From: Cyanidioschyzon merolae
Taxonomy: Eukaryota
Length of the DNA stretch: 64,000 nucleotides
Assembly: GCA_000091205.1 (NCBI GenBank)
Contig: AP006492.2
Strand: one strand, 5' to 3'
Under the pieces are notes generated by a model that saw nothing but the letters and a program-made list of their open reading frames with translations, was not told the DNA's origin and did no database searches. Made by a program: the position numbers and the translations under genes. Below, in pieces: positions 2,810 through 62,442 of the stretch (position 1 is the first letter of the stretch; every line of letters starts with the position of its first letter).

Positions 2810-3946
2810 CTAAGGCGATTCCGCACTTCGCATTGCAAGCTTGTACTGTGCATGCCGCAGCTGTCGGACAACAGGGGCGCGGGCGCACCACATAGCTCCG
2901 TATGATGGAATTTTCACGCTGGGATCCGAGCTGAACCGGTGCGGATGCGGCGTCTGGTCGTCGCCAAGTGGCTGACACAAAAAGCCACGCACGACGAGGT
3001 ACGGTACCACTTCACGATACACTGGTGTATAACTATTCACCTCGAGTACGAGATGGTCGACCTTTTGGAGCCACCGCTGTCCAAGCGAGCGTAACGCATT
3101 CATATCATGGCCTTCGACGTCGATCTTCATGAAGAATATACCCTGGATGCGTTCGCCGCTCTGGCGCTGCCAACGATCCAGTAGTGTGTCAAGGCGAATG
3201 CTCTCCACTGATATAGACTGAACGGTGTCCTCAGAGTCATCCGCAGACTTAATATGTGCCATGCCAATGTTGCCCTCGTAGCGAGCGTAATGCACGTCCT
3301 TGCTTGGCTTTTCATCGATGGCATACTGGTGGATAGTCAGACGCTGAGCAATGGCAGTATTGAGGCGCGCGGAAAGGGCGACAGTAGCGGCGACATCTGG
3401 TTGCATCTCAAAGCTGTGCACCCGATGACCGAGCGCTGCCGCGAAGAGCGCAAACGATCCATAGTTCATACCGACGTCCATGACAATCTTGCCACGGCCG
3501 GCGGTCGGCTTCGATAGCCGTCGAACCAACGTAAAGACATTGTGCACGAACTCTCGGTCCCAGAAACCCCCATTACTCAGCATGCTGTCGCAAACGAGAT
3601 CAGGAGTCACGCACAGGAATGTATACGGATTGGGACGCTCTGTTGCGGGGAGCTCGGTGTCGTTTTCGGGCACATATCGGCCGAGCCGGTACTGCGACCA
3701 GCGCTCATTCGGTAAGCCCAAGAGGTACTTGAACGATTGCGTCTCCGAGTTGCTGATAATATTTCTGATCGCACGCGCGTCTACATACTCAGAGAGACGA
3801 TCTCTCGAGCTCGCCGTCAGCTGAGACGCTGGGAAGACCGCAAGCAGAAATACAACGGAGAACAAAACAAAAAACGAAAGCGCCTGGCGGTGCCACCTGC
3901 TGCGGTTCTTGCGGTAAGTTCGAAGCAAGATTTCCAAAATATTCAT
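2810..3946 (-). CDS. FkbM-family (Methyltransf_21) methyltransferase with N-terminal signal-anchor, probable type II membrane protein
   Basis: 378-aa ORF with an ATG start confirmed at 3944-3946. N-terminal hydrophobic segment FFVLFSVVFLLAVF. Core motifs KIVMDVGMNYGSFALFAAALGHRVHSFEMQP and FMKIDVEGHDMNAL match the FkbM methyltransferase signature (vDvGAniG ... AfEP ... KiDvEG). Confidence 0.65.
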   Translation of the reverse strand: MNILEILLRTYRKNRSRWHRQALSFFVLFSVVFLLAVFPASQLTASSRDRLSEYVDARAIRNIISNSETQSFKYLLGLPNERWSQYRLGRYVPENDTELPATERPNPYTFLCVTPDLVCDSMLSNGGFWDREFVHNVFTLVRRLSKPTAGRGKIVMDVGMNYGSFALFAAALGHRVHSFEMQPDVAATVALSARLNTAIAQRLTIHQYAIDEKPSKDVHYARYEGNIGMAHIKSADDSEDTVQSISVESIRLDTLLDRWQRQSGERIQGIFFMKIDVEGHDMNALRSLGQRWLQKVDHLVLEVNSYTPVYREVVPYLVVRGFLCQPLGDDQTPHPHRFSSDPSVKIPSYGAMWCARAPVVRQLRHAQYKLAMRSAESP

Positions 3947-4086
3947 GCCTGCGCACGAAAAGTGCCGAAGAAGTACAAAATGTTGACTCCGAAAAACGTC
4001 AATCCAAAAGTTGCAACGTGAGCATGCTCAGAGCTCCGCTGTGCGATGCAACGCAGCACTGCCGCCCGGTGCATGCGTTCCAGTCC

Positions 4087-4395
4087 GTGCGGTAAAATCG
4101 ATGCGGTAAGCAACATATTATGAGACACGAGTGGACAGTAATGGATCGATTGCCTTGCATGCCGTGCGGTAAGATTGATGCGGTAAGTATCCAATTATGG
4201 GACAAGAATGGTCAATAATCGATCGATCATGATGCATGTCGTGCGGTAAGCTTGATGCGGTAAGTATCCTATTATGAGACACTAGTGAACGACCATCCAT
4301 AGATTGCCTTGCATGTCGTGCGGTAGGAACGATGTGGTTAGCATCATATTATGAGACAATCATGATCAATAATCGATCGATCACCTCGCACGCTA
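4087..4395. repeat. Tandem repeat, 4 copies of a ~77-bp unit (gtgcggtaaNNtNgatgcggtaagNNNc.attatgagaca...)
   Basis: Units begin at 4087, 4164, 4241 and 4318, each with the gtgcggta(a/g)g core. They lie 140-450 bp upstream of the FkbM methyltransferase start on the minus strand. Confidence 0.85.
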
Positions 4396-6412: not shown

Positions 6413-7355
6413 GCCGTCAGCCTAGTGTGGTACAAGCGAATGAGCAGCAAAAGAGAAACAGGGATGCGAACGTATTTTCGAAACGCGCGCGTTCGCTAGC
6501 ACTTGGAGTACAGCCCACAGTTCTCCGATCTCGCTGTCTGGTAACACTGTTGTCCTTGCCGCGCCGGCGATGCGTGCGCTCCCTGCCTTGGGTCCGTCGA
6601 GAAGCGTACCAGTTGCGCACTTCTCTCGCTTACGCACCGTAGATGCGCTGCGCGTTGTAACAAAATGAGACGCGCCAGCCACAACGACTTGTTCTGCACC
6701 AAGAGTCTCTGAAACGCTGTGCAGCCCAGACCTAAACGACACCGGTTTTGGGCTCGCTCGCACTTGCGTTTACCTGCGTTTGCGTTTCGTCAACACCACC
6801 GCGAACGCAGAGCGTTTCAGCGACGGGAGCCGCGGCTCTGGTGTCGCGCGTTCCATGCAAGGGTGCATATGGGCGCTTTCTGTTTCCCGTGCATATCGAC
6901 CTGTGCAACACGTACAGTGTCCCATCGTAATGCAATGAATGTCTTGAATCATGTTGAATTGTCTGCTACATTGAAGCAGAGGGTGTTTCAGGATGGAGTC
7001 TCTTGAAAAATAAACCTATCCATATAGGGAACAAATTGTCCTCACGTGTCGCAACGAGTGACTTGCGCCACATGTACACAGCGTCCTATCGTCATGTAAC
7101 GAATATCTTGCAGAATGTCAATTAGTACGTTACATTGAAGCACCAGATTTTTAAAGGCTGAGCATCCCTGAAAAAAAATACGTACTTATTTTGCAAAACA
7201 AGCAGAGTACACTCCCGCAACTACCAACTTGCGCGATACCAGCGCTCAAGAAACAAGCACGATCGTACTCGCAGGGACGTTTTCTGTTCTGTTTGTGTGC
7301 CGTGCAACTTTACAACGAAAAAAGCCACTGGTTCACAGCCATCAAACTGTGCCGT

Positions 7356-8705
7356 ATGCTAGGAACAGATCAGCGCATAAATTCTGATACATTGCTGCGA
7401 CGTGCTCCCAGGTTTTACTGTGGAAGCGGGTTCGTGTTTGCGGCGCTGCCGCCGTGGCTGGAGCCACGGACTGCGTGCAAGCACCGTGCCAGGTCGCCGG
7501 TACCACTGCAACGGCATCCGCGGCTGTTCCAGCGCTGCGGTACCTCAGTAAGTCGCCACGCTTTAATTACGCTCCGGGCGAAGAATGAACGACCGTCACC
7601 TCCGTGGCAGCTCATTCTATCGTTCGCGGCGCTCGTGGTGTTTGGTGCCCCACTTGTGAAGCCACTCGTGGATACGCTTGCGACGCACGTTGCACCGGGT
7701 TCTCAGGTGGCGTTAAGGACGTCTAGTGCACTGAGTGAAGAGGAAATTGCTGAAAAACTGCGCGTCATTCCTGTTTTCTGTGTTACGGACCGCGAAGGTC
7801 GACCGATTCTCACAGAAGTTGGGTCGGCGTCGAACACCCCGGCTGGTGCAGCGGCCCAGGCCGAGCTGGACGAACCCGAAACCTTGAGTGGTGCTCTAGG
7901 CTTGCTGGATATCGACTCGCAACAGCGAGTTCAAAAGCGGAGAGCAGGGCCTGCCACGGCGCACCGCATCGGCAGCTTTTACCTGAGCTATGACGATGCC
8001 TCGCGTTTCCTAGAACAGCTCTCGGAACGAAGCGCACAAGACAAGCAGAATCTCATTCGGGATGCTCGTATTGTCGTTGTTCCCCTCGATGAGGCGCTTA
8101 GCTTCGTGACGCCACGCGAAGGTGGCCGTGGCAAAGTGCCAGACCCGTCCGATGAGTTTCACCTTGTACCAAGTGAGCAGAGCGTGCGTTTTGCGGAGCG
8201 GGTGCTCAAAGCAAACGGGGCCCTAGGGGTGAATGCGCGCATACGAGGCGTCCCTCTGTTTACCATCCGCGGCTTTGCACTGCAGCGAGTCGTCGAGAAG
8301 GATGCTGGGGCGGGTTCAGAAGCGACCCAAGTATCTGAGACCGCGAACCTGTCAACCGAACCTTTGTTGCTCACACCAGTTTTCTTCACCCTGGATGATG
8401 TGCAGTTCGCATGGGATCGGTTGCGTCAAGTGAGCAATAATCAAGGAACCGCGCTGCCGTCGAAACTTCCTCTCGATCGAGTTTACGTAACGGATCTGCG
8501 TACGGTTATACAGGGAATGCGGCAAGGCTCGAGTGCCCTGGAACTCACCGACGGTAGCGCCGACTACCATTCCGTGGTGTTCTTGCCTTCGCGCTCCGCC
8601 ATGCCCGGAACACGCACGGATGCGAGCGGTTCGCAGCGTACAGACGCTCAGCCCGTTCTAGAAACGAGGGCTACCACTGAGCGCCATGATGGAGCCGGGC
8701 GCTAG
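7356..8705 (+). CDS. Tic22-like protein (plastid inner-envelope translocon / intermembrane-space chaperone family)
   Basis: Two Tic22-type repeats: KLRVIPVFCVTDREGRPILTE ... IGSFYLSYDDASRFLEQL, and IRGVPLFTIRGFALQ ... PVFFTLDDVQFAWDRL. Compare plant Tic22 GVPVF ... FRFLPD. The track ORF 7191..8705 starts on TTG. The first in-frame ATG is at 7356 and gives an Arg-rich, presequence-like N-terminus followed by a hydrophobic stretch LILSFAALVVFGAPLV. A gtaagt at ~7546 hints at a possible intron, so the true 5' end is uncertain. Confidence 0.55.
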   Translation: MLGTDQRINSDTLLRRAPRFYCGSGFVFAALPPWLEPRTACKHRARSPVPLQRHPRLFQRCGTSVSRHALITLRAKNERPSPPWQLILSFAALVVFGAPLVKPLVDTLATHVAPGSQVALRTSSALSEEEIAEKLRVIPVFCVTDREGRPILTEVGSASNTPAGAAAQAELDEPETLSGALGLLDIDSQQRVQKRRAGPATAHRIGSFYLSYDDASRFLEQLSERSAQDKQNLIRDARIVVVPLDEALSFVTPREGGRGKVPDPSDEFHLVPSEQSVRFAERVLKANGALGVNARIRGVPLFTIRGFALQRVVEKDAGAGSEATQVSETANLSTEPLLLTPVFFTLDDVQFAWDRLRQVSNNQGTALPSKLPLDRVYVTDLRTVIQGMRQGSSALELTDGSADYHSVVFLPSRSAMPGTRTDASGSQRTDAQPVLETRATTERHDGAGR

Positions 8706-10497: not shown

Positions 10498-12342
10498 TCA
10501 CTTGCACGCCGCCATCATTTCACGCAACTCCGCTTCAGTGAGAAATCCACGCATCAAATTCGGAAGCGTACCAGCGTTCGCAAACGGCTTCAGCGACCAG
10601 TTATGGAGATCAAAGTACACCAGCTGGTTACCGCTCGATGAAATGGACTTGGCATCAGACGGATCTGGAGCAAGGCTCTCGACGCCTGGTCCCGATCGTG
10701 CAAACCACGTCTTGAGCTCCTTGTGATACCGCCAACCTCGATTGAACAACTCCAGTGCAGCATATACTTGTACCAAATCACGCGGATATCCGTAAAAGAT
10801 AAGGATTAACGTCTCCGTTGAAAAGCGTTTGAAATGCGCAGGTTTCAAGCTCACTGTGCATGCGCTGTAACAAGACGGCAGAGCCGCAAATGCATCGAGC
10901 GAGTTGCCCACAGTCTCATCTGTTCGGGTATCCTCCAATGGTGCACCATTTCGTGATAAATCGGGACCAAACGGAGACGAAAACGAAGGATACAACGGCT
11001 CCGCGCTGTTCAGATTCAGACCCAGGGCCGTCAGGTCTACCCCGTGCGCCAATAGCGACAGGTCCGCATTCTGCGAGCGAATCGTCGCCAAGAGTCCCAG
11101 CATGCCGTACGGTGAGCCCCAGGTGCCGTTCTCCGCACCTGCCGCCTGACCCGACGCAGTCCCCGAGCCGTGGGCCAAGTTCAAGAGATTCAGCGCCATG
11201 GACGTCGCGCTGGCCGCAGCGGTCCCAGCTGCAGAGAAGACGCCCGACCGAGCACCAGCTTCAGTGGAAAACTGGCCCATTCCTAGTCGTGCACTCGGAT
11301 TCGGCTCGGCATTGAGTCGCGTACTCCACTCTGGGGCATCGGAGCGTGATCCTGCCGGGCCCGAAGACGACGACGCCGACGACGTTGTTGTTGTTGTTGT
11401 TGTTGCAAGCGATGCCAGCGTCGGCAAGGATGGAGGCGTTGCCAGCGGTGCTGAGGGTAACGGCGGTGGCGCTGATGGCGTTGCTGGTGCTGGCCCTGCT
11501 GCGTACGGCGGCAGCGAAGTGGGCGCTGTCGATGATCCCGTGGCGGATGGTGCTCCAAGGAAGCCGACCGTCGATGTCGACGACGCCGGCGGTATCGACA
11601 TCGCCGCCAGAGCACCGGTACCCGAGGCTCCGTTCCCGGCACCTGCTCCAGTACCAGCAACGAAGGAGTTGGGCACTGCGCCAGCCGTCACGTTGCCACC
11701 TATGGTTCCCAAGGATGGGTTCAGTCGAGAATGGACACCGAGCGTGGCCGGGTTCTGGAGTTTTGATCCCAGCGCCGGAAAGTCTCGCGCAGTAAGCTCC
11801 ACCCGCTGCGACATCGAATACGGGCTCCCCAGAACCCGACCGTACCCCATCATTGCATTGCCAGCTCCCGAGTTGTTCGCTGACTCTCCAAGAGAAGCCT
11901 GCGACGTTGCACCCTGCCCATGATTCAGCATCATTCCCACACCAAGAGCCGGGAAATCCGTCAGGTCGAAAACTGCAGTCTGTTGGCCCATGTGTGACTC
12001 ACTTGACGCGGGCGGTGTTTGGCCCAGTGGCGGAAACAGAGGCGAGCCACTGGTCAGGAGTGCAGGCGACACCGTCAGACCAGCGCTCGTTGTTGCTGTT
12101 GTTGTTGTTGTTGCTGCTGCTGCTGAGGCGTTGAGCGGGCCGCTCCCAAACCCAGCGTTGGAGTCATTAGCAGGGCCAGCTGAAGCCGGCGGTGTGGTCG
12201 CTAACGCGCCGCTTGCTAGCGCAGACGGCCCGTGTAGCTGTTGTGCGAACGACTGGAAGCGCCCAAGAAGCGGCGGGCTCCATCCAGCGCTCCCCGAAGT
12301 CGTCAGACCCTGGCCTCCGCCAGCGCCAGCGTTCGTTGGCAT
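10498..12342 (-). CDS. CCR4-NOT complex subunit NOT2 (CNOT2)-like, C-terminal NOT-box, with a long Ala/Gly/Ser/Thr/Pro-rich low-complexity N-terminal region
   Basis: C-terminus TLILIFYGYPRDLVQVYAALELFNRGWRYHKELKTWFAR...LVYFDLHNWSL matches the CNOT2 NOT-box (FYIFYSMP...ELFNRDWRYHKEERVW). The track ORF extends to 12363 on a GTG; the first ATG is at 12340-12342. An upstream exon cannot be excluded. Confidence 0.65.
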   Translation of the reverse strand: MPTNAGAGGGQGLTTSGSAGWSPPLLGRFQSFAQQLHGPSALASGALATTPPASAGPANDSNAGFGSGPLNASAAAATTTTTATTSAGLTVSPALLTSGSPLFPPLGQTPPASSESHMGQQTAVFDLTDFPALGVGMMLNHGQGATSQASLGESANNSGAGNAMMGYGRVLGSPYSMSQRVELTARDFPALGSKLQNPATLGVHSRLNPSLGTIGGNVTAGAVPNSFVAGTGAGAGNGASGTGALAAMSIPPASSTSTVGFLGAPSATGSSTAPTSLPPYAAGPAPATPSAPPPLPSAPLATPPSLPTLASLATTTTTTTSSASSSSGPAGSRSDAPEWSTRLNAEPNPSARLGMGQFSTEAGARSGVFSAAGTAAASATSMALNLLNLAHGSGTASGQAAGAENGTWGSPYGMLGLLATIRSQNADLSLLAHGVDLTALGLNLNSAEPLYPSFSSPFGPDLSRNGAPLEDTRTDETVGNSLDAFAALPSCYSACTVSLKPAHFKRFSTETLILIFYGYPRDLVQVYAALELFNRGWRYHKELKTWFARSGPGVESLAPDPSDAKSISSSGNQLVYFDLHNWSLKPFANAGTLPNLMRGFLTEAELREMMAACK

Positions 12343-15023
12343 AGCGATGTTACCAGCCCTCACACCAGTTCGCTTGGCCTTCGGCTAGGGGCGTCCAACA
12401 AACAAAACCGTTTGTAAGGTGCAAAGGTTACCACGACTATGAAACCAGGAGCGATACGCACACCGTAGCGCTGCTGTTGCGCTCGACAGCGTGTCCAGGT
12501 CGCTGGCCTCGAACAAACCCCGAGTACCTGCAGTGGCAACAACGCTGCGAAGTTGTGCAGAGCACTGTAGCTGCTGCGGACTCGAGTCCCAACGTTTCGT
12601 GGACGTTACCTTTTAGCTGACAGCGTCCCTGCTCACGTCCAGGGCAGGTCGAAACCAGGGTCAGTGAACGTGGGTGTTATACAGTCCAGTGTAGAAGCAG
12701 CGGTCTGCCGTGCGCTCTCAGGGCGCAAAAACAGCACCACTGCCCGCTAGCGCCAGTTCAACGCCTGGACGACCACTGTTCGCCGGGCGCCAAAAGCACT
12801 GTACCCAGGTGAGCGCTGCCGAACGGTACAGAAACCTGCGGATGAACGTTCGGAGACCGGAAGACCTAACAACTCTTCCAGTAAGCTGGATGCGTCGCGT
12901 GTCCACTGCAAGTGCCGGACGCAGCACACGCAGCAGGAGCGTTTCGCGGAAACAGCTCAAGTCGACTGCCGGTCGCTGTTGCTGTCGGGGAGAACTTGCC
13001 AGCTTTAAGTTTTTTTTTCGGTGAACCGGAGAAAACTTATGAGTCGTAACTATGTTTCCTTCCTGTAAAGATGGAGGCGGGGACGAACTGGAGCCGCAGC
13101 TGCCGCTGCACGCACTCAAGATCCCGGACTCGTGTACGCTACAGCTTGACAAGGCGGGCTTGGGCAAACGCGTCTCCAGAGACGCTCACTCCAGCAGCAT
13201 CAGTATCGAGCGGTCTAGAGCTTGCCTAGTTTCTCTTCGACGAAAGAAAGCGCCGGCGACTTGGTGTGCACGCGCTCATGGACGCTCCCAGAGCGATAAA
13301 GTGCGCTGCGTGTGCAGTGTTCCCGGCATCGAAACACCTTTTCACTTGATGTATCTGGAATGCAGCGATTCATGCAATTGCATCCGCATGTACCCCGAAT
13401 ACTGTTTCGGCATCCATATCAGACGATAATGGAACGAGTCCTTTGGGTCATTGGGAAATTCTAATTTGTTGGGTCTCTTTCCATTGTCATCAAAAGCAGC
13501 TTTTGCGAGCTGGTGCTGCAGCTACCTCCTTTTGCCTTTCATATCTCCGGCTTTCGAGTCGCCTATCTCTCCTATCCATGCAGCTCCATTGTTTTACCGG
13601 TCGAACGAGCTTGATGTCACCGTGAACCTCCGGATTTCGCATCTTCCGGCTGTAGTCCACGCTTCTGGTGGATTGGAGGATGTTGCAATCCTCATTTCGC
13701 TCGCCATTTTCAGTCTACGTTTATGTACAGCCTTGATACGCCCGTCGCAGCGGTGAAACTTGAAGATCATCAGTTGTTCGCACATATCTACAACACCTTC
13801 GACTCCTCTGCATGCTGCCCTGTCGAGTGGGACGCTTGCTGCATCCCTAGGTACATGCCTCTTGGCGAGTGAAGACGATTTTTTCAATATCCCTTTCCGT
13901 TTCGACGCCAAGCACCGTGCGCTAGAATCACGGGCTTCTTCTGGGTGACTCCCGCAGCGCGTACGTTGTCTGCCGCTTGGCCAAGCTCACGCTTTGCCTT
14001 TTCATGGACGAGTGGTGTAACGCGATGATGTGCACAGTCAAAAACGTTCTGTAAGGAGAATCCGCTCTGAATATATAGCGGAGAAATCTCGATCCGTATA
14101 CGCTAGCTTTACCCAAAGCAGTGACCCACGATTGACTGGAATCGATCTCTGCAATGACTCCAGTGCAATTCCGGGACCCTTGTCTGTGCCAGAAGAATAG
14201 CCAAGAGTCCTGGAAGCATATCCCCTATCAAGAATGATACTGAAGTAGACTTGGATTCCGTTGATAGGCGCCGAGCGAAGAGCACTTGTTTTTCAAATAC
14301 AATCGATGATTTGGCGTGCCATACTCATTGATGTTCAGAAACGAGCTCGTTCACAAGTCGTCCATGGACAACATCGAGCATCTTTCGTCGTCAGTCTAAC
14401 TTTGCGAGTTGCTGTGGCCATGAGCAGCCCAGAAACTGGAAGATGCAATCGCTGAAGAAAGCCTGATTTGCGCATGCTACACTAATGCAAAGCGGTAACG
14501 TGCGTAACCTTGAACGTATGAACTGGAAAGTGATAACGCTTCATTTACGAACCTCGAGTCGAGCGCGTCGCGATGCATCTTGATTCCGGTAACGTCCATA
14601 ACTTCAGCGGCAGCGCGTCGCATGCGGTATTCCGAAACAAAAACGATCAAGAAACCTGAAGCTACGCATGAAGCCCCAAACCCATCCAGCTGTACTTGTT
14701 CGTTCGAGGCTGCATATCTAGAAAAACGCCGTAAGAAATCGCAAGACCGGAAAGGATCCAACAGTGCACTGTTCCATTGTAATCTGACACGAGTCGAGAA
14801 GCGAGTAAGGTTCCAGGTTTTAGTACCGCGCAAGCAACACCATTCTCAATACGTTTGGCAAGACGTTGTTCGGCAGATCCTTCTCTCCCACAAGCGTACG
14901 AGTACTGGTTGCAACAACGGTACGCGAGTCGTTCTGCTGTGGTTGTCTTCTGACCTCGAAACTGCTCACTGGACCCGCCGCTCCGCTCCGTGCAAACCGC
15001 AAGAGGCGCGCGATCCACGAAAA

Positions 15024-16493
15024 ATGGCTTCGACATGCTGCTCCGCAACAGCAATCGACACAACGCAGATCGTCATTCTGGGCAGCGGGGGAGCAGCCAT
15101 GGCAGCAGCGATAACCGCTGCAGAGCGGGGTGCTCAAGTGCACGTGGTAGAGCGAGGTACCATAGGCGGCACGTGTGTGAACGTGGGCTGCATCCCGTCA
15201 AAACACCTCGTCCGATGCGGTCAACTGGAGCACTGGTGCGAACTGCACAAGCACCAAACCGTGTCCAACGCAGTGAACGGTTGTCCCTGTCCCGGTATGC
15301 TCGACGCCCCTAAACTGCGTACCGCTCGACAAGCGCTCGTAGAACAGCTTCGCTATCAAAAGTATGAGCGGGTGCTCGGTGAGAACCCCCGAATCACAAC
15401 TTGGCACGGAGAGGCGCGTTTTCACGATCCTCAGAGCGTCTGGGTACGAACCACTGCAGATGACGGCAGTCGTGTCGACACCCTGCTGCGCTTTGATCGT
15501 TGTCTGATTGCTGTGGGTGCTGCACCCTGCATACCGCCGATTGACGGACTCGCAGAGGTCCCTTTCTGGACGTCAACGGAAGCACTGGCGAGCGACCAGA
15601 TACCGCGGAGACTCGCGGTCATCGGGTCGTCTGCTGTAGCGCTCGAACTGGCCCAGGCTTACGCACGTCTGGGTAGTCGCGTCTGGATCCTCGCTCGCCA
15701 TGGACTATGCACGCGAACTGACCCGCTCGTTGGCGATACACTGGGTGCGGCTCTGGTAAGTGACGGACGCATTGAGATCCGCTGCCATACTCGGGTCGAG
15801 CGGGTCCGGTATCGGGACGGCCTGTTCACGATGACGCTGGACTCGCAGGAAACGAGCGTGGAGGTAGACGCTTTGCTGGTTGCGTGTGGGAGACGTCCGA
15901 ACACTGCCGCACTGCAGCTCGATGCAGCTGGTGTGCACTGGGATGCGGCCTCGGGCACTGTCCCAGTCAACGATAGGATGCAGACGAATGTACCAAACAT
16001 ATACGCAGCAGGTGACTGTACGAACATGCCGCAGCTGGTGTATGTGGCGGCTGCAGCTGGTACCCGTGCCGCAATCCAGATGACCGGCGGTGACGCCAAA
16101 CTGGATTTGTCGCTGGTGCCTTGGGTGATCTTTACGGATCCACAGGTGGCGGCTGTGGGTCTCACAGAGGCGGAGGCACATGCGCTTGGTCTCCAGACGC
16201 AGGTGCGCACGCTCCCGGTCACGAATGTGCCACGGAGCATCGTGCACGGCGAAAAGTACGGATTTTTGAAAGTCGTCGCGGATATAACGAGCAAGCGTAT
16301 CCTGGGGGCTCAGGCGGTGGCATCGGAAGCCAGCGACATGATTGCCACCGTCGCGGTTGCCATGCGCGGTGGTCTAACTGTCCCGGATCTGGCGGAGCTG
16401 TTGATACCATACCTCACCGCGAGCGAGGCAGTCAAGCTGGTTGCCCAGTCATTCACGCGTGATGTCCAGAAGCTGTCGTGCTGCGCTGGCTAG
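15024..16493 (+). CDS. merA: Mercuric reductase (MerA core, FAD/NAD(P) pyridine nucleotide-disulfide oxidoreductase) without the NmerA metal-binding domain
   Basis: 489 aa from the ATG at 15024. GSGGAAMAAA, ERGTIGGTCVNVGCIPSK (redox-active CxxxxC), YQKYERVLGENP, WHGEARF, FDRCLIAVGA, PFWTSTEALASD, RLAVIGSSAVALELAQAYARLGS, PNIYAAGDCT, PQLVYVAAAAGTRAAIQMTGGDAKLDL, VIFTDPQVAAVG and the C-terminal ...DVQKLSCCAG-stop are near-collinear with recalled Tn501 MerA, including the C-terminal Cys-Cys pair. The track ORF starts at 14580, but its first 148 codons carry no homology. Confidence 0.85.
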   Translation: MASTCCSATAIDTTQIVILGSGGAAMAAAITAAERGAQVHVVERGTIGGTCVNVGCIPSKHLVRCGQLEHWCELHKHQTVSNAVNGCPCPGMLDAPKLRTARQALVEQLRYQKYERVLGENPRITTWHGEARFHDPQSVWVRTTADDGSRVDTLLRFDRCLIAVGAAPCIPPIDGLAEVPFWTSTEALASDQIPRRLAVIGSSAVALELAQAYARLGSRVWILARHGLCTRTDPLVGDTLGAALVSDGRIEIRCHTRVERVRYRDGLFTMTLDSQETSVEVDALLVACGRRPNTAALQLDAAGVHWDAASGTVPVNDRMQTNVPNIYAAGDCTNMPQLVYVAAAAGTRAAIQMTGGDAKLDLSLVPWVIFTDPQVAAVGLTEAEAHALGLQTQVRTLPVTNVPRSIVHGEKYGFLKVVADITSKRILGAQAVASEASDMIATVAVAMRGGLTVPDLAELLIPYLTASEAVKLVAQSFTRDVQKLSCCAG

Positions 16494-16700: not shown

Positions 16701-16788
16701 CGACGGCACTGAGGAGCGTCGCACACACGCGCATCCCAACTGGAGTCGCGTACGGGCGACGCGTGTGCGACGCTCCTCAGTGCCGCCT
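16701..16788. repeat. Perfect ~24-bp inverted repeat (hairpin) with a ~30-nt spacer, ~210 bp downstream of the merA stop
   Basis: cggcactgaggagcgtcgcacac(acgcg) at 16704-16731 pairs with (gacgc)gtgtgcgacgctcctcagtgccg at 16758-16786. The mirrored small ORFs on both strands (…ALRSVAH… / …RVCDAPQCR…) reflect this palindrome. Confidence 0.7.
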
Positions 16789-17183: not shown

Positions 17184-18383
17184 TCAAGGAAGAAGCCGAC
17201 GCTCGCCGCGCACCACGCCGTGGTCTGTAAATATCCGAATACCGTGCGTTTCGCTGATTTCAAGCACCTCGCAAGCGCCACCATACGCGGCACTCATGCC
17301 CGTGTCGACACGCCACACGCGACCCCGACACGCTCCATTGATGACGACTTGCGGTGTATGGCCTACAACCATGCGTCGTACACCAGCGCGGCGCAACGTC
17401 TCCTCGAGCTCGCGACAAGCGTCCGAGTCAGAACGCAAATGCGGCGCCGAGTATGTTCGCATCCATACCGGGGAGCGCGAGCCCTTCAGGAACTCTGGCT
17501 TAGATGAGACGTCTGCTGCTGCTGCTGCTGCTGCTGCTGTGGAGCCAAAGCGCGCAACCCCGACTCTGGGGACACTTTCGGTGATGCGCGGTATCGTGGC
17601 CTTCCAGGGATTCATCGGCAGCCGTGTCGACCATGCCGCTGCCGCACGTCGCTCCATCCAGGCACGAGTCTCGGCGTTGAGCCGCTCGAGGCCATACGCC
17701 ACGTGATCCGGACGCAGGCCACCGTGCACAAACAACGTGTCGCCAATGATCAGCACGAGCTGTCCGCGTTCCGCCAAAAGTCGGGCGGTTGGGCACCCCG
17801 GAGCAAGCGCCATCGCGCGGGCACGCTGCTCTCGGGGTAGCGCCTTGACGCGCTGACGCAGCACCGGCGGCAACTCTCGGTAGGCCTTCTCGAGGGCGCG
17901 ACCGGCGAGCTCCCAGTCCCGCCGACGGAACTCGGCAAAACCACCAGGCGTCACGTATCGAAAGTCCAGGTCTACATTCATGACCTCGTGATTTCCGAGC
18001 AGTCGATAGACGGCGCCGCCACGCTCACGCGCTTGCCTGTCGAGGGTGTCGAGAAAGTGCAAGACTGCCCGCTCAGCGTCGCCACGATCGAAGACGTCGC
18101 CGACTTGCACCACGACGGCATCCCCACCGATCCACTCACCATTTTCATTGATCACATTCGCCAGCGATAAACACTTTCGCAACGAAGCCAAGTCACCGTG
18201 AACGTCACCGAGCGCCAGGAGCCTGCGTACGGCGGGGCGGCGTACGCTGGGGCCAGCTGCCGTCACCCGCGCGAACGCTGGGCGCACTTTCCACAACGAA
18301 GCGAGCACATCTGCTCGCAAACGGTGCAAGGCATCTTCACAAGTTCGCTTCCAGTCCACCAGGGTAAGTCCGGCAGATGCCAT
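17184..18383 (-). CDS. PPP-family Ser/Thr phosphoprotein phosphatase, Shewanella-like (SLP) / calcineurin-like metallophosphoesterase
   Basis: 399 aa, ATG confirmed. Carries the GDVHGD, GDVFDRGD and GNHE motifs (GDxHG / GDxxDRG / GNHE). Includes a poly-Ala run encoded by (GCT)9 at 17513-17539. Confidence 0.7.
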   Translation of the reverse strand: MASAGLTLVDWKRTCEDALHRLRADVLASLWKVRPAFARVTAAGPSVRRPAVRRLLALGDVHGDLASLRKCLSLANVINENGEWIGGDAVVVQVGDVFDRGDAERAVLHFLDTLDRQARERGGAVYRLLGNHEVMNVDLDFRYVTPGGFAEFRRRDWELAGRALEKAYRELPPVLRQRVKALPREQRARAMALAPGCPTARLLAERGQLVLIIGDTLFVHGGLRPDHVAYGLERLNAETRAWMERRAAAAWSTRLPMNPWKATIPRITESVPRVGVARFGSTAAAAAAAADVSSKPEFLKGSRSPVWMRTYSAPHLRSDSDACRELEETLRRAGVRRMVVGHTPQVVINGACRGRVWRVDTGMSAAYGGACEVLEISETHGIRIFTDHGVVRGERRLLP

Positions 18384-19627: not shown

Positions 19628-21568
19628 ATGGATGCATTGCATACCGCAGGCGGTTGCTCCAGCAGGAACGTTCGTCGCAGCGTGCCAGCACAGCGCACTA
19701 GGAGGTCGTGTTTCTTTTCCTCTCGACGACAAGGTCATATGCACTCCGCTTTACAACCAGCCGCACAGCCGTGTTTTATCCTGGCGCCCGGTTTGACCAG
19801 TAACCGAAATGGGTTGACGCGTGCTTCGTGCGCGCACGAGCTGCGGCGAGCGCCTTGCGTCTGGCTCGCAAGGCGTCGCTTTCCCCGGCAAACAGCAGGC
19901 CCACAGCACGATGCAAGTTGTCTGGTGCCAAGCTTTCATCGACAGGAACTCCATCGCCAACGAGTTGTTGCGCTATCGCGCCGTCGTACGAAGCGCACTG
20001 CCCCACTAGACATAGTGGCTGAGCGAAGCGACTCGGGCAACGCCCAGGCCGTTTCCGGAACCCAGTTTCAGCAGGAAGCGACTCCGACAGGCGCTCCCGG
20101 CAAGGTCTATGACCGTGTCGTGTGCAAGTTTGGTGGCTCTTCTGTCGCCGACGCGGAACGTATGCGTGAGGTAGCGCGACTTGTGCGGCGTCAGATTGAG
20201 CTGTCCCGCCAGTACCCAGTGGTGGTGCTGTCGGCGATGGGCTCGACCACAAACGACCTCATTGCCGCCGGAGACGCCGCACTTTACGAAGGTATCGTTG
20301 ACTCGACAGTGGTCCGAAACCGCGCCTACGCGGTCTGTGATGCTCTCGGCCTGGACCGGGAGGCGCTCGTGGACCCCCTGCTCATGCAACTGGACCAGCT
20401 GCTCATGGGTGTCAAGTTCATTCGGGAGCTCTCGCCGCGAACCCGAGACTACCTGGTCTCGTTTGGCGAGCGGCTTTCGGTTCGCATTTTCGCAGCGCAT
20501 CTGCTGTACAATGAAGGACTACCTGCACGCGCCTTCGATGCGTTTGACGTCGGCTTTCGAACGGACTCGAATTTTCAGAATGCGGAGATCCTCGAAGAGA
20601 CCTACGACCTTATCCGAAGCTTTTTCGAGCGGGTTGTAAGCAACCAGACCCTAGCGGTGATCACCGGTTTTATTGCGAAGGACAATGAGGGTCACGTTAC
20701 CACTCTGGGGCGCGGAGGCTCCGACTTGACTGCCACCACGCTGGGTGCAGCGCTGGGCGCCACCGAAGTCCAAGTCTGGAAGGACGTCGACGGTATCATG
20801 ACAACGGATCCGCGTCTAGTGCCGAATGCGATACCCGTGGCTGAAATGTCTTTCGAAGAAGCCGCCGAGCTCGCTTACTTTGGCGCCAAGGTTCTGCATC
20901 CGGTGGCGATGCAACCGGCGTTGCGCTTCAATATACCGGTGCGCGTGAAGAACTCGTACAATCCGGAAGCACCGGGCACTGTGATTCTTCGACGGGAGTC
21001 CGCGACCATGGATCGCCCTGTCACAGCGCTCAGCGTGAAACGCGGAGTCCAGTTGGTGGATATTGTATCCACGCGTATGGTCGGTGCATACGGTTTTCTG
21101 GCGCGGGTGTTCGCGTGCTTCGCGACCCACCAGTTAAGCGTGGACGTTATCGCTACATCGGAAGTGAGCCTATCGCTGACACTGGACGCAAACGCCTGCG
21201 ATATGACGCGGCAGCAGCGCATCATTAAGGAACTGCAACAGATCGCACAGGTGAGCTTCAGCTCCGGACGCGCCATCATTAGCATCATCAGCAACGTTCG
21301 GCGGAGTAGCGAAATTCTGGCCAGAGCGATGAAAGTGCTCCACGAGCAGAACATCGAGGTACAAATGATATCCCAGGGAGCTTCCAAATTCAATATTAGC
21401 TTGGTAGTCCACAACGACGAAGCTATCACTGCAGTGCGCGCCTTGCACGATGAGTTCTTCCATTGCTCGCCGTCGGCAAGCAACGGAACGTCGACGTCGG
21501 CGACGGCAGCAGCAGCTGCTGCAGCAGCAGCGAACGCAGACGGCGTCCGCGTCGCGGGTGCCGCTTGA
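19628..21568 (+). CDS. Aspartate kinase (monofunctional; C-terminal ACT-domain region) with a ~150-aa N-terminal extension, likely an organellar presequence
   Basis: 646 aa, ATG at 19628. KVYDRVVCKFGGSSVADAERM (the KFGGxSV ATP-binding signature), VVVLSAMGSTTNDL, and a C-terminal regulatory region ...ISLVVHNDEAITAVRALHDEFF. Homology starts near residue 150, preceded by an Arg/Ser-rich segment. Poly-Ala at the C-terminus. Confidence 0.8.
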   Translation: MDALHTAGGCSSRNVRRSVPAQRTRRSCFFSSRRQGHMHSALQPAAQPCFILAPGLTSNRNGLTRASCAHELRRAPCVWLARRRFPRQTAGPQHDASCLVPSFHRQELHRQRVVALSRRRTKRTAPLDIVAERSDSGNAQAVSGTQFQQEATPTGAPGKVYDRVVCKFGGSSVADAERMREVARLVRRQIELSRQYPVVVLSAMGSTTNDLIAAGDAALYEGIVDSTVVRNRAYAVCDALGLDREALVDPLLMQLDQLLMGVKFIRELSPRTRDYLVSFGERLSVRIFAAHLLYNEGLPARAFDAFDVGFRTDSNFQNAEILEETYDLIRSFFERVVSNQTLAVITGFIAKDNEGHVTTLGRGGSDLTATTLGAALGATEVQVWKDVDGIMTTDPRLVPNAIPVAEMSFEEAAELAYFGAKVLHPVAMQPALRFNIPVRVKNSYNPEAPGTVILRRESATMDRPVTALSVKRGVQLVDIVSTRMVGAYGFLARVFACFATHQLSVDVIATSEVSLSLTLDANACDMTRQQRIIKELQQIAQVSFSSGRAIISIISNVRRSSEILARAMKVLHEQNIEVQMISQGASKFNISLVVHNDEAITAVRALHDEFFHCSPSASNGTSTSATAAAAAAAAANADGVRVAGAA

Positions 21569-33832: not shown

Positions 33833-34678
33833 ATGAAGCGTAGCCTAGCAGTGATTATTGTCGCAATTCTGCTGTTTGGGTACTCAGCGGTCGTACGGGC
33901 CGCGGTTGTCCGTCGCGCAGCCCCGGCACCTGCTGCATACATGCGAGGAACGGCCTCGGAACTGAAGTTCCGCAGCCAGGCACGTATACGTCTGCCGCCG
34001 CCGCCTCCGCCTCCGCCGAAGCCAACGCCGACGCCACCGCCCGCCGTTGGTGGTGCCGGTGGCGCAGGCGGGGCTGGTGGCGCTGTAGGTAATGGTAACT
34101 ATGGAGGAGCGGGTGGATATGGTGCTTTTGGCGGTGTCGGAGGTAATGGTGGTTTTGGCGGTGGCGGCGGGAACGCTGCCAATGGCGGAAATGCTGGCGA
34201 TGGAGGCACTGGCTTCTTCGGTGGTTCCGGAGGTGCAGGTGGGGACGGTGGATTTGGCAGCTTTGTTGGTAACGGCGGCTTTGGAGGAGACGGTGGAAAT
34301 GCTTCATATTCGGGCTTTGGCGGAACTGGTGGCAATGGAGGTGACGGAGGTGATGCGAGCAATGGAGGATATGGTGGTAATGGTGGGTATGGAGATGGCT
34401 ACGCATTTGGTGGCACCGGCGGTGATGGCGGTGTAGGTGGACCCTCTGGCAATGGTGCTGACGGTGGTGTTGGAGGCGAGGGTGATTTTGGCGGGTTCGG
34501 AGGCACTGGTGGCCCTGGCGGGTTCGGTGGCGCAGTTGCGAACGGTGGCTTTGGAGGCAATGGTGGATACGCATTTGAGGGGGGGAACGGAGGTAATGGT
34601 GGCGTGGGCGGCGGGGGAGGCCTTGCAGCAAACGGCGGCAGAGGAGGCAGCGGTGGCAATGCTAGCTCATTTTATTGA
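33833..34678 (+). CDS. Secreted glycine-rich repeat protein (signal peptide, Pro-rich linker, then ~200 aa of GGxGG-type repeats)
   Basis: 281 aa, ATG confirmed. N-terminus MKRSLAVIIVAILLFGYSAVVRA, then PPPPPPPPKPTPTPPP, then (GG[AND]GG[FYV]GG)n with periodic Asn/Asp/Tyr/Phe. The Pro-rich ORFs on the complementary strand are its mirror. Confidence 0.5.
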   Translation: MKRSLAVIIVAILLFGYSAVVRAAVVRRAAPAPAAYMRGTASELKFRSQARIRLPPPPPPPPKPTPTPPPAVGGAGGAGGAGGAVGNGNYGGAGGYGAFGGVGGNGGFGGGGGNAANGGNAGDGGTGFFGGSGGAGGDGGFGSFVGNGGFGGDGGNASYSGFGGTGGNGGDGGDASNGGYGGNGGYGDGYAFGGTGGDGGVGGPSGNGADGGVGGEGDFGGFGGTGGPGGFGGAVANGGFGGNGGYAFEGGNGGNGGVGGGGGLAANGGRGGSGGNASSFY

Positions 34679-36901
34679 TCGAGCAAGACTTCTACGTACG
34701 CAGACCAACGTTAATGCCGGGATGGATTGAATCTTTTGCCGAACAGGGCCATCATTGGAAAGCCGCATTCGAGAGGATGGCCTCAACAATATCGGGCACC
34801 TAAAGGGCGCACGTCAGATTACAAAAGTCTTGGAAATTTTGGGAGTGCTCCACTTCCGTCCATCAGTCCGGATCTGCGTCTGCTTCCAGATGCAAAAGAT
34901 ACCACGAACGCACGGACGTTGTTGTCAGCACCCAGTATCCAACACAAATTCGGAAGGTCGGCTCCATCGTCGATTTCGATGTCTTTTTTGCAGCGCTGCT
35001 GGAGAAACTCCTTTGAATTCGCTTGCCAGTACGGCAGCGGATTCGCGATCTGGTGGCATTGAGGAATCAACAAGGGCGCTGGGCACTATCCGCCCGAGAG
35101 CGCGTTTTCCTTGCAAGACGCCTTGCCTCGCCGAACGCACTGTAGCAAGGTGCGCGCGTTAGGCCTCAACGGAAGGAGCATTATGTATCGAGCGCGCCCA
35201 AAATTTGAGAGTCCGCGCCCTTGGGGCACGTCACCTACTCCGGTCTTGTGGAAAGGTCCGCGCATGCGTGGCATTCGCGTTCTACCCTCTTACACTGAGC
35301 ACTATGCGTCGAGGCATTTCAGCGGCATGGATCCGTCACAGTCTAGATGTAAACCCGAAAAGTGCTTCTGTTATCGGTGTACGATCAGGAGGAACTCGAC
35401 TAAAATGTCAGGTATGAGGAGCTGATAGATGCTACCCCGGTTTGCGTTCCTGTCCTTTGAGTGTGGTGGGACGAATGTCGACTGGCAAGGCAGTGATCGG
35501 CGGCGAATCCGTATTTCGGCACAAGGTGCTGCCACAGAAAAGAGGACCCAAAATTTCGCGTTCGTAGAGGGGCATCGTGAACGCAGAGACAGGTGTCATG
35601 GACGCCCACGACAAGTTTACCGCAGTCACATGTGCAGGCGGGCACCCAACCGAAGTTGTTTGCGCAGGTGCAAAAGATGGCGTTTTTCCACCGGGCTCGC
35701 AAAATCGTCAAGCGCTCGTGTCGCGACAGCGAATCAGCGTTCTGCATGATACGTCCAGTATGTAACGAACGCCCTATCTGTCACGTCGTATTTTTGGTCA
35801 CTTGATTGTCCAGCATACTTCTAGAAGCGCGTTGCTGACTTTCCGAGGATATCGCACAGCATAGCTCCTCTCCTGTCCGGCGTATGAGAAGCAGACGGGG
35901 GCTCTTGTACAAGAGTCGGCGCTCCTACTGTTCGCCATGGAGGCCCCGAGTCGAACTTCTGTTCAATATATAGTCTAGATAGAGAGGCTGGCAATACCCA
36001 GCGCCCAGAGCTCTGATTCTTCGTGCCTCATGAGATCGATGGGCGTAGGCAATACCGATTAACGAGCAAAAAGCTGTGGCAGCGAGCGAACGTGATTCCT
36101 TGTAAAGTCTAGTCAATACAATCGTGTCGCGCCGACTAGCAACGACCACATATCGCAATGTCAGTGCTGGTGCAGCGTCGCATCGACAGTCGGACGCACT
36201 GGCATAACGCGCTGAACGTCAGACATGCAAAGGTAGGGCAGGAGACCAGGAAACAGCGCGGTGTCCATTTGATTCAGTTTCGTCCCAACAATCACGAAGC
36301 AACGAATGAGTACCGAAAAGGTTTCGTGCATACAAAGCGAAGAATGCATCCACGCGCAACATTCGCCAGAGCAGATAGAGTGCATTCCCGTATTGAGGCA
36401 ACCATATATAAGACGGATCTTCCTTCAGTGCATACATTTGGAGCCCAAGTCGTGAGCCCTTGTTACGATGCCCTGCGTTTGCACGCGCATCATCGAGGCA
36501 AGTGTGCCGCCAAACGAATACTTCGCAAAGCGACAACGCTGCGTGACGCCTCGCCCGTGCGCACTGCACCTCAGCGGGCGACGCTCCCCGTAATGCACCA
36601 GCGATCATATTGGGAACGTGAGTTTCCTTAATCCTGCTGCGGCACAGTGCGAGGTCGCAGCGACAAGAAACCTCGGCAGCATGCTCCCGAAATCACCAGC
36701 AGGTTCGCAGGTCCTATCTGTTTCACCCGCTAAACGAACATCTCGAGTCCTCTGCCAGAATGAGGACATCCATGCACAATTCTAGTGAGCGTATCCGCGA
36801 GAGGCCGCCAAATAGCCATAGCACGTGCTTAGCGGCGGCGGAGTCCCGGAGGTAACGCACTCGCTATCGCTGTGCGCGCAGCCTCAATCAGGTCTGTCAC
36901 A

Positions 36902-55731: not shown

Positions 55732-56003
55732 GGAATGCACGTCTTCTGTTCTTGGAGAGGTTGCTTACACCTCCAAAGGACGCTAGTGCAGGTCCGCAGG
55801 AGGCGCACCCCTCGGCAGCATCGCCGATCGCCGTTGTCGGACGCCCTGTTGCCGTCCGAATTCGGCGGCATGCGCGAATTGCGGCTCGTGCTAGAAACTC
55901 TTTTGTCTACGCGGCTGGACTAGTGCCGAGGCGGAGCGCTCGCTCCAAGTACCCTTATCCGGAACCCAAACACGCTTGGGGCTCTGTCGCTTCGTCCAGG
56001 GGA

Positions 56004-56565
56004 CTAGCAGCGTCTGTTTGCGGTGATGATGACAAGCGCTTCCAGACTGCTCCCCATGCAGTGATTCCCCAAAAGTCTCTTCGAAGAAAACTTGACGGAC
56101 ACGCTTCTCCTCGACGGCTAGCAGCGTCTCTTTGCGGCGATGATGACAAGCGCTTCCAGACTGCTCTCTATGCGGAGATTCTCCAAAAGTCTCTTCGAAG
56201 AAAACTTGACGGACACGCTTCTCCTCGACGGCTAGCAGCGTCTCTTTGCGGTGATGATGACATGCGCTTCCAGACTGCTCCCCATGCAGTGATTCCCCAA
56301 AAGTGTCTTCGAAGAAAACTTGACGGACACGCTTCTCCTCGACGGCTAGCAGCGTCTCTTTGCGGCGATGATGACAAGCGCTTCCAGACTGCTCTCCATG
56401 CAGTGATTCCCCAAAAGTCTCTTCGAAGAAAACTTGACGGACACGCTTCTCCTCGACGGCTAGCAGCGTCTGTTTGCGGTGATGATGACAAGCGCTTCCA
56501 GACTGCTCTCCATGCAGTGATTCCCCAAAAGTCTCTTCGAAGAAGGCTTGAAAAACACGCATATA
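56004..56565. repeat. Minisatellite: ~5 tandem copies of a 114-bp unit
   Basis: Units start at 56004, 56118, 56232, 56346 and 56460 (ctagcagcgtct[g/c]tttgcgg[t/c]gatgatgaca[a/t]gcgcttccagactgctc...). All six frames are open across it, which is an artifact of the repeat. It lies ~270-830 bp upstream of the GPAT start. Confidence 0.85.
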
Positions 56566-57498
56566 CGCCCGCATGAGTGCCGACCCGACGAGTGCGTACC
56601 TCACAGGGCTCGCGCGTCCAAGCGAGTCTCATACAAGACCGGCCGCTCGACGATCCGTCGGCAGCATTGACGTCCCCTGACTCAGCCAACATGAACGCAC
56701 TTTCACCAGAATAAGCTTTGATGCATCCAGTAGCAGAGGCAGAAGGCTAGTGGTATCGACACTCTGCCACAGAAAAACTGATAATTCGCCATACCGAGTC
56801 GATGAGCAATTCGAACGTATGGACAAGAGCCTCGAGACGCAATGCAGCTTTGCAGAAACGACGTGTATGCTGTACAGCGCGGCATCCTGCCAGGAAGCGC
56901 CGTACGCGTCAGGCGCTCGTCATGCGCCCCAGCGGCGCCCAGGGATAGCCACGAGGCCGCGGCATCGCCGATGCCAATCGATCGTCTGTCGCCCGCAAGG
57001 CACTGCACAAACGCGGAGCACGGAGCGTATGCCCCGCGATCAGTTGCCGTTCAGCAGCAGGCCAAAGCAGGCAACAGCGGCTCTTCTGCTTGCAGCCCGC
57101 ATGGTGACAGCATACCGTCGATGATCCCGGAGTCGTCGATCCAGCGCAACGTGTCGAAGCAGTAGCAGGAGCAGGAGCAGCAGCAGCAGCAGCAGCCACG
57201 CATGCTCTAGCACCCAAGTCGCTCGCATCGTGACAGAATACAGCTTTTATAAAGCTCCATGGCATTTATCCTATTGCCAGCGAGTAGCATGCTCCCGCAC
57301 TGACCATTGGATACGCATCACGATCGACACTGGCACCCTGAACTGGTCACGATAGCACCTCTAGAGGAGCATGTAGCGCCAGGCTGCTGCACGCGGGCTG
57401 GCGGCTGGCATGCGCATTGAATCCCTGGGGGGGCGCGCGTCGCCCCGCGTGGCTCGACGCTATCCTTCGCGTTACCGCGTGGTGCCGTTGCTCTTGCC

Positions 57499-62226: not shown

Positions 62227-62442
62227 CAGCACATCGACTAGCTGCTCGTCGGGAGGCATTTCATCGAGCAGGACGAGCACGCAGGTTCACGGATTCAGCA
62301 GCACATCGACTAGCTGCTAGTCGGGAGGCATTTCATCGAGCAGGACGAGCACGCAGGTTCACGGATTCAGCAGCACATCGACTAGCTGCTAGTCGGGAGG
62401 CATTTCATCGAGCAGGACGAGCATGCAGGTTCACGGATTCGT
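62227..62442. repeat. Tandem repeat, 3 copies of a 72-bp unit
   Basis: cagcacatcgactagctgct[a/c]gtcgggaggcatttcatcgagcaggacgagcacgcaggttcacggattcag, with units starting at 62227, 62299 and 62371. Confidence 0.85.

Follow-up and report, generated by a model that had tools for sequence, protein, structure and literature searches.

The window analysed here, a stretch of 64,000 nucleotides (64 kb) of the nuclear genome of the hot-spring red alga Cyanidioschyzon merolae 10D, carries on its plus strand an intron-less coding sequence for a mercuric reductase, merA (15024..16493, +), which begins with the ATG at 15024, ends with the stop codon at 16491-16493 and encodes a protein of 489 amino acids with the ends MASTCCSAT...KLSCCAG. 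The gene is surrounded by eukaryotic neighbours: on one side lie Tic22 (7191-8705, +) and, as the upstream neighbour, the CCR4-NOT gene NOT2/NOT3/NOT5 (10498..12363, –), and on the other a calcineurin-like metallophosphatase, convergent with merA (17184..18383, –), and an aspartate kinase with ACT domains (19628-21568, +). Genes for CSN8/PSMD8 and for an FkbM-type methyltransferase are found farther upstream of merA. Scans of the 64-kb window for tRNAs, Rfam families and telomere repeats were all negative; neither the antisense ORFs within merA nor the small ORFs of the intergenic regions on its two sides match a family, and a hairpin located 3' of merA shows no conservation in the sister genera.

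The gene is already annotated and published, and the finding is not new. In BLASTP the protein is identical over 489/489 residues to XP_005534772.1, “mercuric reductase [Cyanidioschyzon merolae 10D],” and its 99%-identity cluster includes XP_005534772.1/BAM80165.1, on an 839,707-bp record; the database entry (XP_005534772.1/BAM80165.1/UniRef100_M1V572) is the same gene and shows no difference from it. Bacterial origin has been reported for merA (Cho et al., 2023, PMC9812998), and its derivation by horizontal gene transfer (HGT) has been described throughout the Cyanidiales (Rossoni, 2019; Cho, 2023; PMC6629376, PMC9812998), and the gene is reported to be absent from related eukaryotes, namely mesophilic red algae and other Archaeplastida (PMC9812998). 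Since both the annotation and the HGT origin are on record, merA itself adds no new biology.

Upstream of the ATG the reading frame remains free of stop codons over a further stretch (14514..15023, +), which holds one additional in-frame ATG, at 14622. A transit peptide, or a longer N-terminus, starting from this ATG was considered and ruled out: in wild C. merolae-type strains the frame is interrupted by a CAG to TAG change at 14874 and by other stops, in Cyanidiococcus an in-frame stop is present 9 nt 5' of the homologous merA ATG, and a Pfam scan of the in-frame stretch gave no family match. The stretch is, therefore, non-coding, and the stops of the wild strains and of Cyanidiococcus place the start of the protein at MASTCC, leaving no room for a transit peptide, so that a cytosolic location is predicted for C. 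merolae MerA.

By family, residues and fold, the protein is a core-only, bacterial-type mercuric ion reductase. It passes the cut-offs of two NCBI curated models, the MerA equivalog TIGR02053 (506.5 bits; cut-off 454.45) and the MerA model NF010311 (602.4 bits; cut-off 600), and the Pfam domains found in it are PF07992, PF00070 and PF02852, corresponding to FAD binding, NAD(P)H binding and dimerisation, with no HMA/NmerA domain (PF00403) detected by Pfam in the 489 amino acids. The top match by sequence among solved structures is the core of the Tn501 MerA (1ZK7, E 6e-155), collinear over residues 14-489, and the same structure is the top structural match (TM 0.89/0.93) of the AlphaFold2 model of the protein (pLDDT 84.4, pTM 0.82).

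MerA is recognised by its redox cysteine pair, its C-terminal vicinal cysteine pair and two tyrosines, numbered 264 and 605 in Bacillus (PMC3466566, PMC8261052). The CxxxxC pair corresponds to C136/C141 of Tn501 and 207/212 of Bacillus, and the C-terminal pair to C558/C559 and 628/629, respectively; the criterion adopted for the aromatic positions was a tyrosine at Tn501 194 (Bacillus 264) and either a tyrosine (bacterial) or a phenylalanine (archaeal) at Tn501 535 (Bacillus 605). All six residues are present, as C51, C56, Y114, Y463, C486 and C487, and the two tyrosines constitute a signature of the bacterial type. Along the coding strand (+), the FAD-binding beta-alpha-beta unit with the motif GSGGAA (residues 16-44, 15069..15155), which falls within the Pfam Pyr_redox_2 match (residues 15-346) and holds the invariant G20, G22, A25 and E43, is followed by the redox disulfide GGTCVNVGC with C51/C56 (15165..15191), assigned by motif and by structure alignment, and, farther on, by Y114 (15363..15365), placed by alignment. 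The NAD(P)H-binding beta-alpha-beta unit (residues 196-225, 15609..15698), LAVIGSSAVALELAQAYARLGSRVWILAR, was located from the Pfam Pyr_redox match (residues 196-265) and from its invariant columns; it ends with the conserved R225 which, together with R231, is consistent with the use of NADPH. The dimerisation domain (residues 365-471, 16116..16436; Pfam Pyr_redox_dim) holds Y463 (16410-16412), equivalent to Tn501 Y535, and the coding sequence closes with CCAG and the stop codon (16479..16493), in which C486/C487 were identified by motif and alignment. A previous inspection of the letters of this DNA, hereafter the sequence-only reading, had described a 489-aa ORF at these positions starting MASTCCSAT, near-collinear with proteobacterial MerA, with the GGTCVNVGC pair, the FAD and NAD(P) binding blocks and the C-terminal CCAG, and devoid of an NmerA domain: this description holds in all its parts.

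The algal enzyme and the core of the Tn501 MerA (PDB 1ZK7, 4K7Z) are, thus, alike in sequence (~54% identity), in fold and in the six signature residues. In contrast to its bacterial counterpart, C. merolae MerA is without the NmerA domain and its linker, in place of which it has a tail of 13 residues with C5-C6, and possesses seven extra conserved cysteines, some of which form an HWC..H...CxC loop; moreover, its gene is nuclear, monocistronic and ameliorated, and is not accompanied by a mer operon. The tblastn searches of the 64 kb with MerR, MerT, MerP, MerC, MerB, MerE and NmerA as probes, taken from a complete Paraburkholderia operon (L006), gave nothing under E 0.05, while the MerA core of the same operon scores E 6e-146 in the window; the NmerA probe, in particular, remained at E values of at least 0.09 throughout, and no GMTCxxC-type motif occurs in the six frames. 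The gene does not belong to a bacterial mer operon, having no adjacent merR, merT or merP, as the sequence-only reading had stated, nor does its product belong to the full-length MerAs of the Tn501/Tn21 type, which include NmerA, given that PF00403 is missing and the start is fixed at 15024. These observations agree with the lack of merR, merB and merT reported for the algal genomes (Cho et al., 2023, PMC9812998).

The position of merA in the genome is conserved. A block with the same gene order and strands, comprising the FkbM-type methyltransferase, CSN8, Tic22, NOT2, merA, the metallophosphatase, the aspartate kinase and an ORF of ~1200 amino acids, is common to the window, to Cyanidiococcus yangmingshanensis (L001) and to an uncultured relative known from a metagenome (L002), with the NOT2/NOT3/NOT5 and metallophosphatase genes flanking merA in both relatives, whose MerAs are only 68-71% identical to that of C. 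merolae. In Cyanidium, the merA copy that was inspected lies at the end of a contig with other neighbours, matching the published picture in which the gene is single and non-subtelomeric in the Cyanidiales except Cyanidium, where five subtelomeric copies are found (PMC9812998). At a shorter evolutionary distance, an intact merA ORF with 0-3 amino-acid changes is present in all of the eight metagenome contigs from wild C. merolae-type strains, in seven of which 6-8 changes occur in the 444 nt upstream, versus 1-8 in the 1470-nt coding sequence; the dN/dS calculated against these strains is 0.21-0.26 and, being based on 7-8 substitutions, is too poorly founded to carry weight. The composition of the gene is that of its host: its GC3 (0.631) falls among the values of 13 other genes of the window (0.574-0.650), and its RSCU correlates with that of the pooled host genes with r = 0.80, inside the range of the host genes (0.55-0.90). 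It follows that merA is a nuclear, chromosomally integrated and ameliorated gene.

The evolutionary position of the protein was determined in neighbour-joining trees (Kimura-corrected distances, 300 bootstraps, 454-463 trimmed columns, N-terminal regions excluded), built after the removal of truncated and chimeric sequences, whose inclusion gave meaningless deep supports. The MerAs of the Cyanidiales are monophyletic with a bootstrap support of 100%, and their sister group consists of bacterial MerAs of the Tn501-like type; the union of the two groups has 90% support when diverse representatives at 50% identity are used and 93% with all 117 close matches. The named members of the Tn501-like clade belong to Proteobacteria, Verrucomicrobia and Gemmatimonadota, and no specific donor lineage emerges from these trees. 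Outside the algae, the nearest relatives come only from bacteria, with ~53-55% identity and none above 56%, and the only eukaryotic matches identified in the MerA searches are cyanidiophycean. One bacterial protein from the nearest clade (P0114), NmerA-less and with two vicinal cysteines in its tail, was considered as a donor-like sister of the algae and set aside, as it is not specifically sister to them in the tree.

Within the algae, the MerAs of Cyanidiococcus yangmingshanensis (KAK4533158.1) and Cyanidium caldarium (KAK4536540.1, plus four paralogues) are 69-71% identical to that of C. merolae and share with it an MxxxCC start and the clade-specific cysteines; synteny extends to the Cyanidiococcus copy, while Cyanidium differs in its five subtelomeric copies and in their gene context. 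The MerA of Galdieria phlegrea (EP00871_P001722, P0150) is likewise core-only, HGT-derived, cyanidiophycean and rich in cysteines (17 Cys), but is only 40% identical to C. merolae MerA, falls outside the union of Cyanidiales and Tn501-like sequences, and has neither the CC tail nor any of the seven Cyanidiales-specific cysteines, all of which is consistent with an independent acquisition. Its position in the tree agrees independently with the published scenario of two acquisitions, in which Galdieriales and Cyanidiales apparently obtained merA separately (PMC9812998). Another sequence with a K/N-rich tail (P0171), initially taken as the Galdieria MerA, was rejected because it falls in a bacterial clade.

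The grouping with bacterial sequences at 90-93% support, the conserved synteny and the host-like codon usage are together the marks of a horizontally acquired eukaryotic gene, and they have to be weighed against other readings of the locus. Since its nearest relatives outside the algae (~53-55% identity) are exclusively bacterial, merA might not truly be on an algal chromosome and might derive from bacterial contamination or a chimeric assembly. However, the same eukaryotic neighbours recur across three assemblies made independently (those of the window, of Cyanidiococcus and of the metagenomic relative), the gene is found in eight independently assembled wild-strain contigs, its codon usage and GC3 are indistinguishable from those of host genes, and the lack of any bacterial sequence above 56% identity leaves no candidate contaminant; the shared syntenic slot argues that merA is not a contaminant, and this explanation, to which we assign practically no probability, is refuted for practical purposes. 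Nor is the protein likely to be a eukaryotic paralogue of the glutathione, thioredoxin or lipoamide reductases, or an RclA-like Cu(II) reductase, that merely resembles MerA. Such enzymes share the class I pyridine nucleotide-disulfide oxidoreductase fold, and dihydrolipoyl dehydrogenases match the MerA model with TM ~0.85, but all the non-MerA curated models remain far under their own cut-offs (lipoamide dehydrogenase, 321.8 versus 408.8; glutathione reductase, 247.5 versus 480; RclA, 237.3 versus 740), whereas both MerA models pass. Furthermore, the protein has the C-terminal cysteine pair and the two signature tyrosines, and in the tree it falls within MerA, the outgroups without C-terminal CC lying far from it, which makes the paralogue reading extremely improbable.

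A further possibility is that merA persists as a decaying or repurposed relic with no role in Hg detoxification, the alga being without MerR, MerT, MerP and NmerA. It is in line with the absence of mer accessory genes from the window, with the in situ detection of C. merolae merA transcripts in a Yellowstone metatranscriptome of 2024 as a minor share of the merA expression of the community (PMC11662350), and with our literature search, which found no enzymatic or genetic test of C. merolae MerA, the experimental Hg work cited there concerning Galdieria. Against this stand an intact ORF whose catalytic residues are conserved over four lineages only ~70% identical, the published interspecies Ka/Ks of ~0.10, the archaeal mer systems, which also depend on MerA alone (PMC9812998), and the amplification of merA to five copies in Cyanidium; a relic is, on balance, very improbable.

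We consider it very probable, therefore, that the nuclear merA of C. merolae 10D encodes a core-only MerA of bacterial type, gained through HGT by an ancestor of the Cyanidiales and inherited vertically thereafter. The recipient would have been the common ancestor of Cyanidioschyzon, Cyanidiococcus and Cyanidium, which would have acquired the gene from a bacterium. The sequence-only reading had arrived at an ancient and ameliorated acquisition, with host-like GC and codon usage, between eukaryotic flanks (Tic22 and NOT2/3/5 on one side, the metallophosphatase and the aspartate kinase on the other) and not attributable to contamination of the assembly; the composition, the synteny in Cyanidiococcus and the uncultured relative, the eight wild-strain contigs, the Tn501-like grouping and the published HGT sustain it on each of these points, and the BLASTP and phylogeny that it had proposed as a check put the protein inside MerA.

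By homology with the Tn501 MerA, the protein would be a cytosolic homodimeric flavoenzyme, in which electrons would pass from NADPH to FAD and then to the C51/C56 pair. A Hg(II)-thiol complex would be caught by the flexible C486/C487 of one subunit and handed to C51/C56 of the partner, with Y114 and Y463 probably aiding the transfer of Hg(II) to the buried pair, where it would be reduced to volatile Hg(0), leaving the cell by diffusion. The enzymatic activity and the physiological role proposed here are drawn by analogy with the bacterial system, and the enzyme would act alone, with no MerR, MerT, MerP or NmerA domain. The gene confirms a textbook case, that of extremophilic red algae that got heavy-metal detoxification genes from bacteria and of one transferred enzyme able to function without its operon, and provides an example of a transfer between domains recognisable from raw sequence alone.

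A feature of the protein that seems to have been overlooked, since MerA surveys trim N-terminal sequence before the analysis (PMC3466566, PMC8261052), is its N-terminal tail (residues 1-13, 15024..15062, +), with the vicinal cysteines C5-C6 (15036-15041), which is predicted to be flexible and replaces the ~95 amino acids of NmerA and linker of the bacterial relatives. In the AlphaFold2 model the order of residues 1-10 is as low as that of the C-terminal CC tail. All the MerAs of the Cyanidiales begin with MxxxCC (MASTCC, MTERCC, MTGPCC and MKEHCC), a start also kept by the wild strains, and this motif, set 11-12 residues ahead of the FAD fold, is common to all four algal lineages. Among the 116 closest bacterial relatives, NmerA is present in 101 and a CC tail in only one (P0114, MDDCC...). 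A literature search found no description of an N-terminal CC tail in MerA, which does not prove that none exists, and the observation may be new.

Vicinal cysteines at this position recur in bacterial MerAs devoid of NmerA. They are found in the short tail of 9 of 40 independent NmerA-less cluster representatives at 50% identity, where ~0.2% per tail would be expected from the cysteine frequency (binomial P ~1e-16), and, among all the sequences retrieved, at no more than 30 residues from the FAD strand in 97 of 165 MerAs without NmerA versus 2 of 143 with it. The distance of the pair from the FAD strand, on its upstream side, is nearly always 9-13 residues. One bacterial clade, with MAGs of Nitrospinota, Desulfobulbus and Bdellovibrionota as its named members, includes 75 proteins of 120 that start with M(D/E/G)CC; like the algal enzyme they have no NmerA and carry the pair 9-13 residues before the FAD beta-strand, but they are only 38-42% identical to it and lie elsewhere in the tree. 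All of these counts refer to sequences that are not phylogenetically independent and to a sample shaped by the choice of queries.

As the simplest hypothesis, the CC tail could be a minimal surrogate of NmerA, that is, a fourth Hg(II)-binding cysteine pair that might pass the metal from cellular thiols to the C-terminal pair, a device that would recur in NmerA-less bacteria. The evidence is correlative, and we hold this proposal, which draws on sequence comparison, as tentative and somewhat doubtful, the tail being a modest lead. As the host is a eukaryote, S-acylation of these two cysteines would be an alternative role. In a MAFFT alignment, C6 of the algal proteins was aligned with the second cysteine of GMTCxxC, but descent of the tail from NmerA as a remnant was not retained, this correspondence being treated as an alignment artefact. 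If true, a “mini-NmerA” tail would refine the accepted model of MerA with three cysteine pairs and would matter for compact mercury reductases engineered for bioremediation.

Besides C5 and C6, five more conserved cysteines are specific to the Cyanidiales (C72, C87, C89, C229 and C254), and the total number of cysteines in their MerAs is 15-17 versus a bacterial median of 8. Three of them are in a Cys/His-rich loop, H70-W-C72-x-x-H75 ... C87-x-C89 (15231..15290, +), located between the active-site helix and the Y114 helix, which may assist the tail in the handling of Hg(II) and whose residues 82-91 have low pLDDT in the AlphaFold2 model.

The mercuric reductase encoded by merA carries, close to its N-terminus, a vicinal cysteine pair (C5-C6, window 15036-15041), and in the comparison of MerA proteins this N-terminal CC sits 9-13 residues ahead of the FAD-binding strand. 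The tail is kept in every Cyanidiales MerA among the sequences compared and, across the MerAs retrieved by homologue searches, it is found in 97 of the 165 proteins that lack the N-terminal metal-binding domain NmerA but in only 2 of the 143 that bear it. Further retrieved proteins with a CC tail are P0135, P0137, P0004, P0114, P0155, P0170-P0172 and P0298-P0316; a description of this element was not found in the MerA literature searched. Two bacterial MerAs, P0370 and P0374, are the sole ones combining NmerA and CC. In both, the pair is located in the linker and is preceded by a retained methionine (..MPDCCDTNHSK..), and from the sequence it looks as if NmerA had been joined onto a MerA already bearing the tail.

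Cysteines are abundant in Cyanidiales MerAs, which contain 15-17 of these residues, compared with a median of 8 in bacterial MerAs. Conserved and Cyanidiales-specific are those of the loop HWC72..H75...C87xC89 (residues 70-89, window 15231-15290), together with C229 (window 15708-15710) and C254 (window 15783-15785). The independently acquired MerA of Galdieria is likewise Cys-rich (17 Cys), but the positions differ from those of the Cyanidiales proteins.

The neighbour-joining MerA tree singles out no donor of the Cyanidiales MerA. Judged by distance, P0018, P0043 and P0073 are among its closest bacterial counterparts, which include MerAs of Methylacidimicrobium/‘Verrucomicrobium sp. 3C’ and of one Gemmatimonadetes MAG. 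The genus Methylacidimicrobium comprises acidophilic methanotrophs that live in geothermal soils, and this would suggest a shared habitat. Within the conserved syntenic block of merA, an FkbM-type methyltransferase gene (Methyltransf_21, window 2810-3946, minus strand) could be another candidate for horizontal transfer, because this family is mostly bacterial.

In the syntenic block of Cyanidiococcus (JANCYV010000015.1), merA lies ~21 kb from the contig end, and in Cyanidium all of the merA copies are subtelomeric (PMC9812998). A location near the end of a chromosome may have made merA prone to being amplified in subtelomeric regions. Upstream, the NOT2-merA intergenic region (window 12364-15023) is comparatively GC-poor (0.49-0.53) and unusually long, 2.66 kb versus ~1.1 kb in Cyanidiococcus, and its scanning revealed no ORF with a family match, no tRNA and no Rfam match. 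Downstream, in the gap that separates merA from the convergently oriented phosphatase gene, a near-perfect inverted repeat with 26-nt arms and a 30-nt loop (window 16704-16785; RNA fold -62.9 kcal/mol, z = -6.7) is the sole such element within the window, with no counterpart in Cyanidiococcus or in the same block of an uncultured relative.

Elsewhere, tandem repeats occur at window 4085-4383 (77 bp x 3.9), 62227-62440 (72 bp x 3) and 56004-56551 (114 bp x 4.8 copies, 94% identity), the last overlapping ORFs on both strands (55752-56576, plus; 55891-56604, minus). GC skew, elsewhere not exceeding |0.1|, shows a sharp local spike of +0.285 at window 34001-35000, which contains a 27-bp repeat (34472-34532) and coincides with the overlapping ORFs 33833-34678 (plus) and 33855-34631 (minus).
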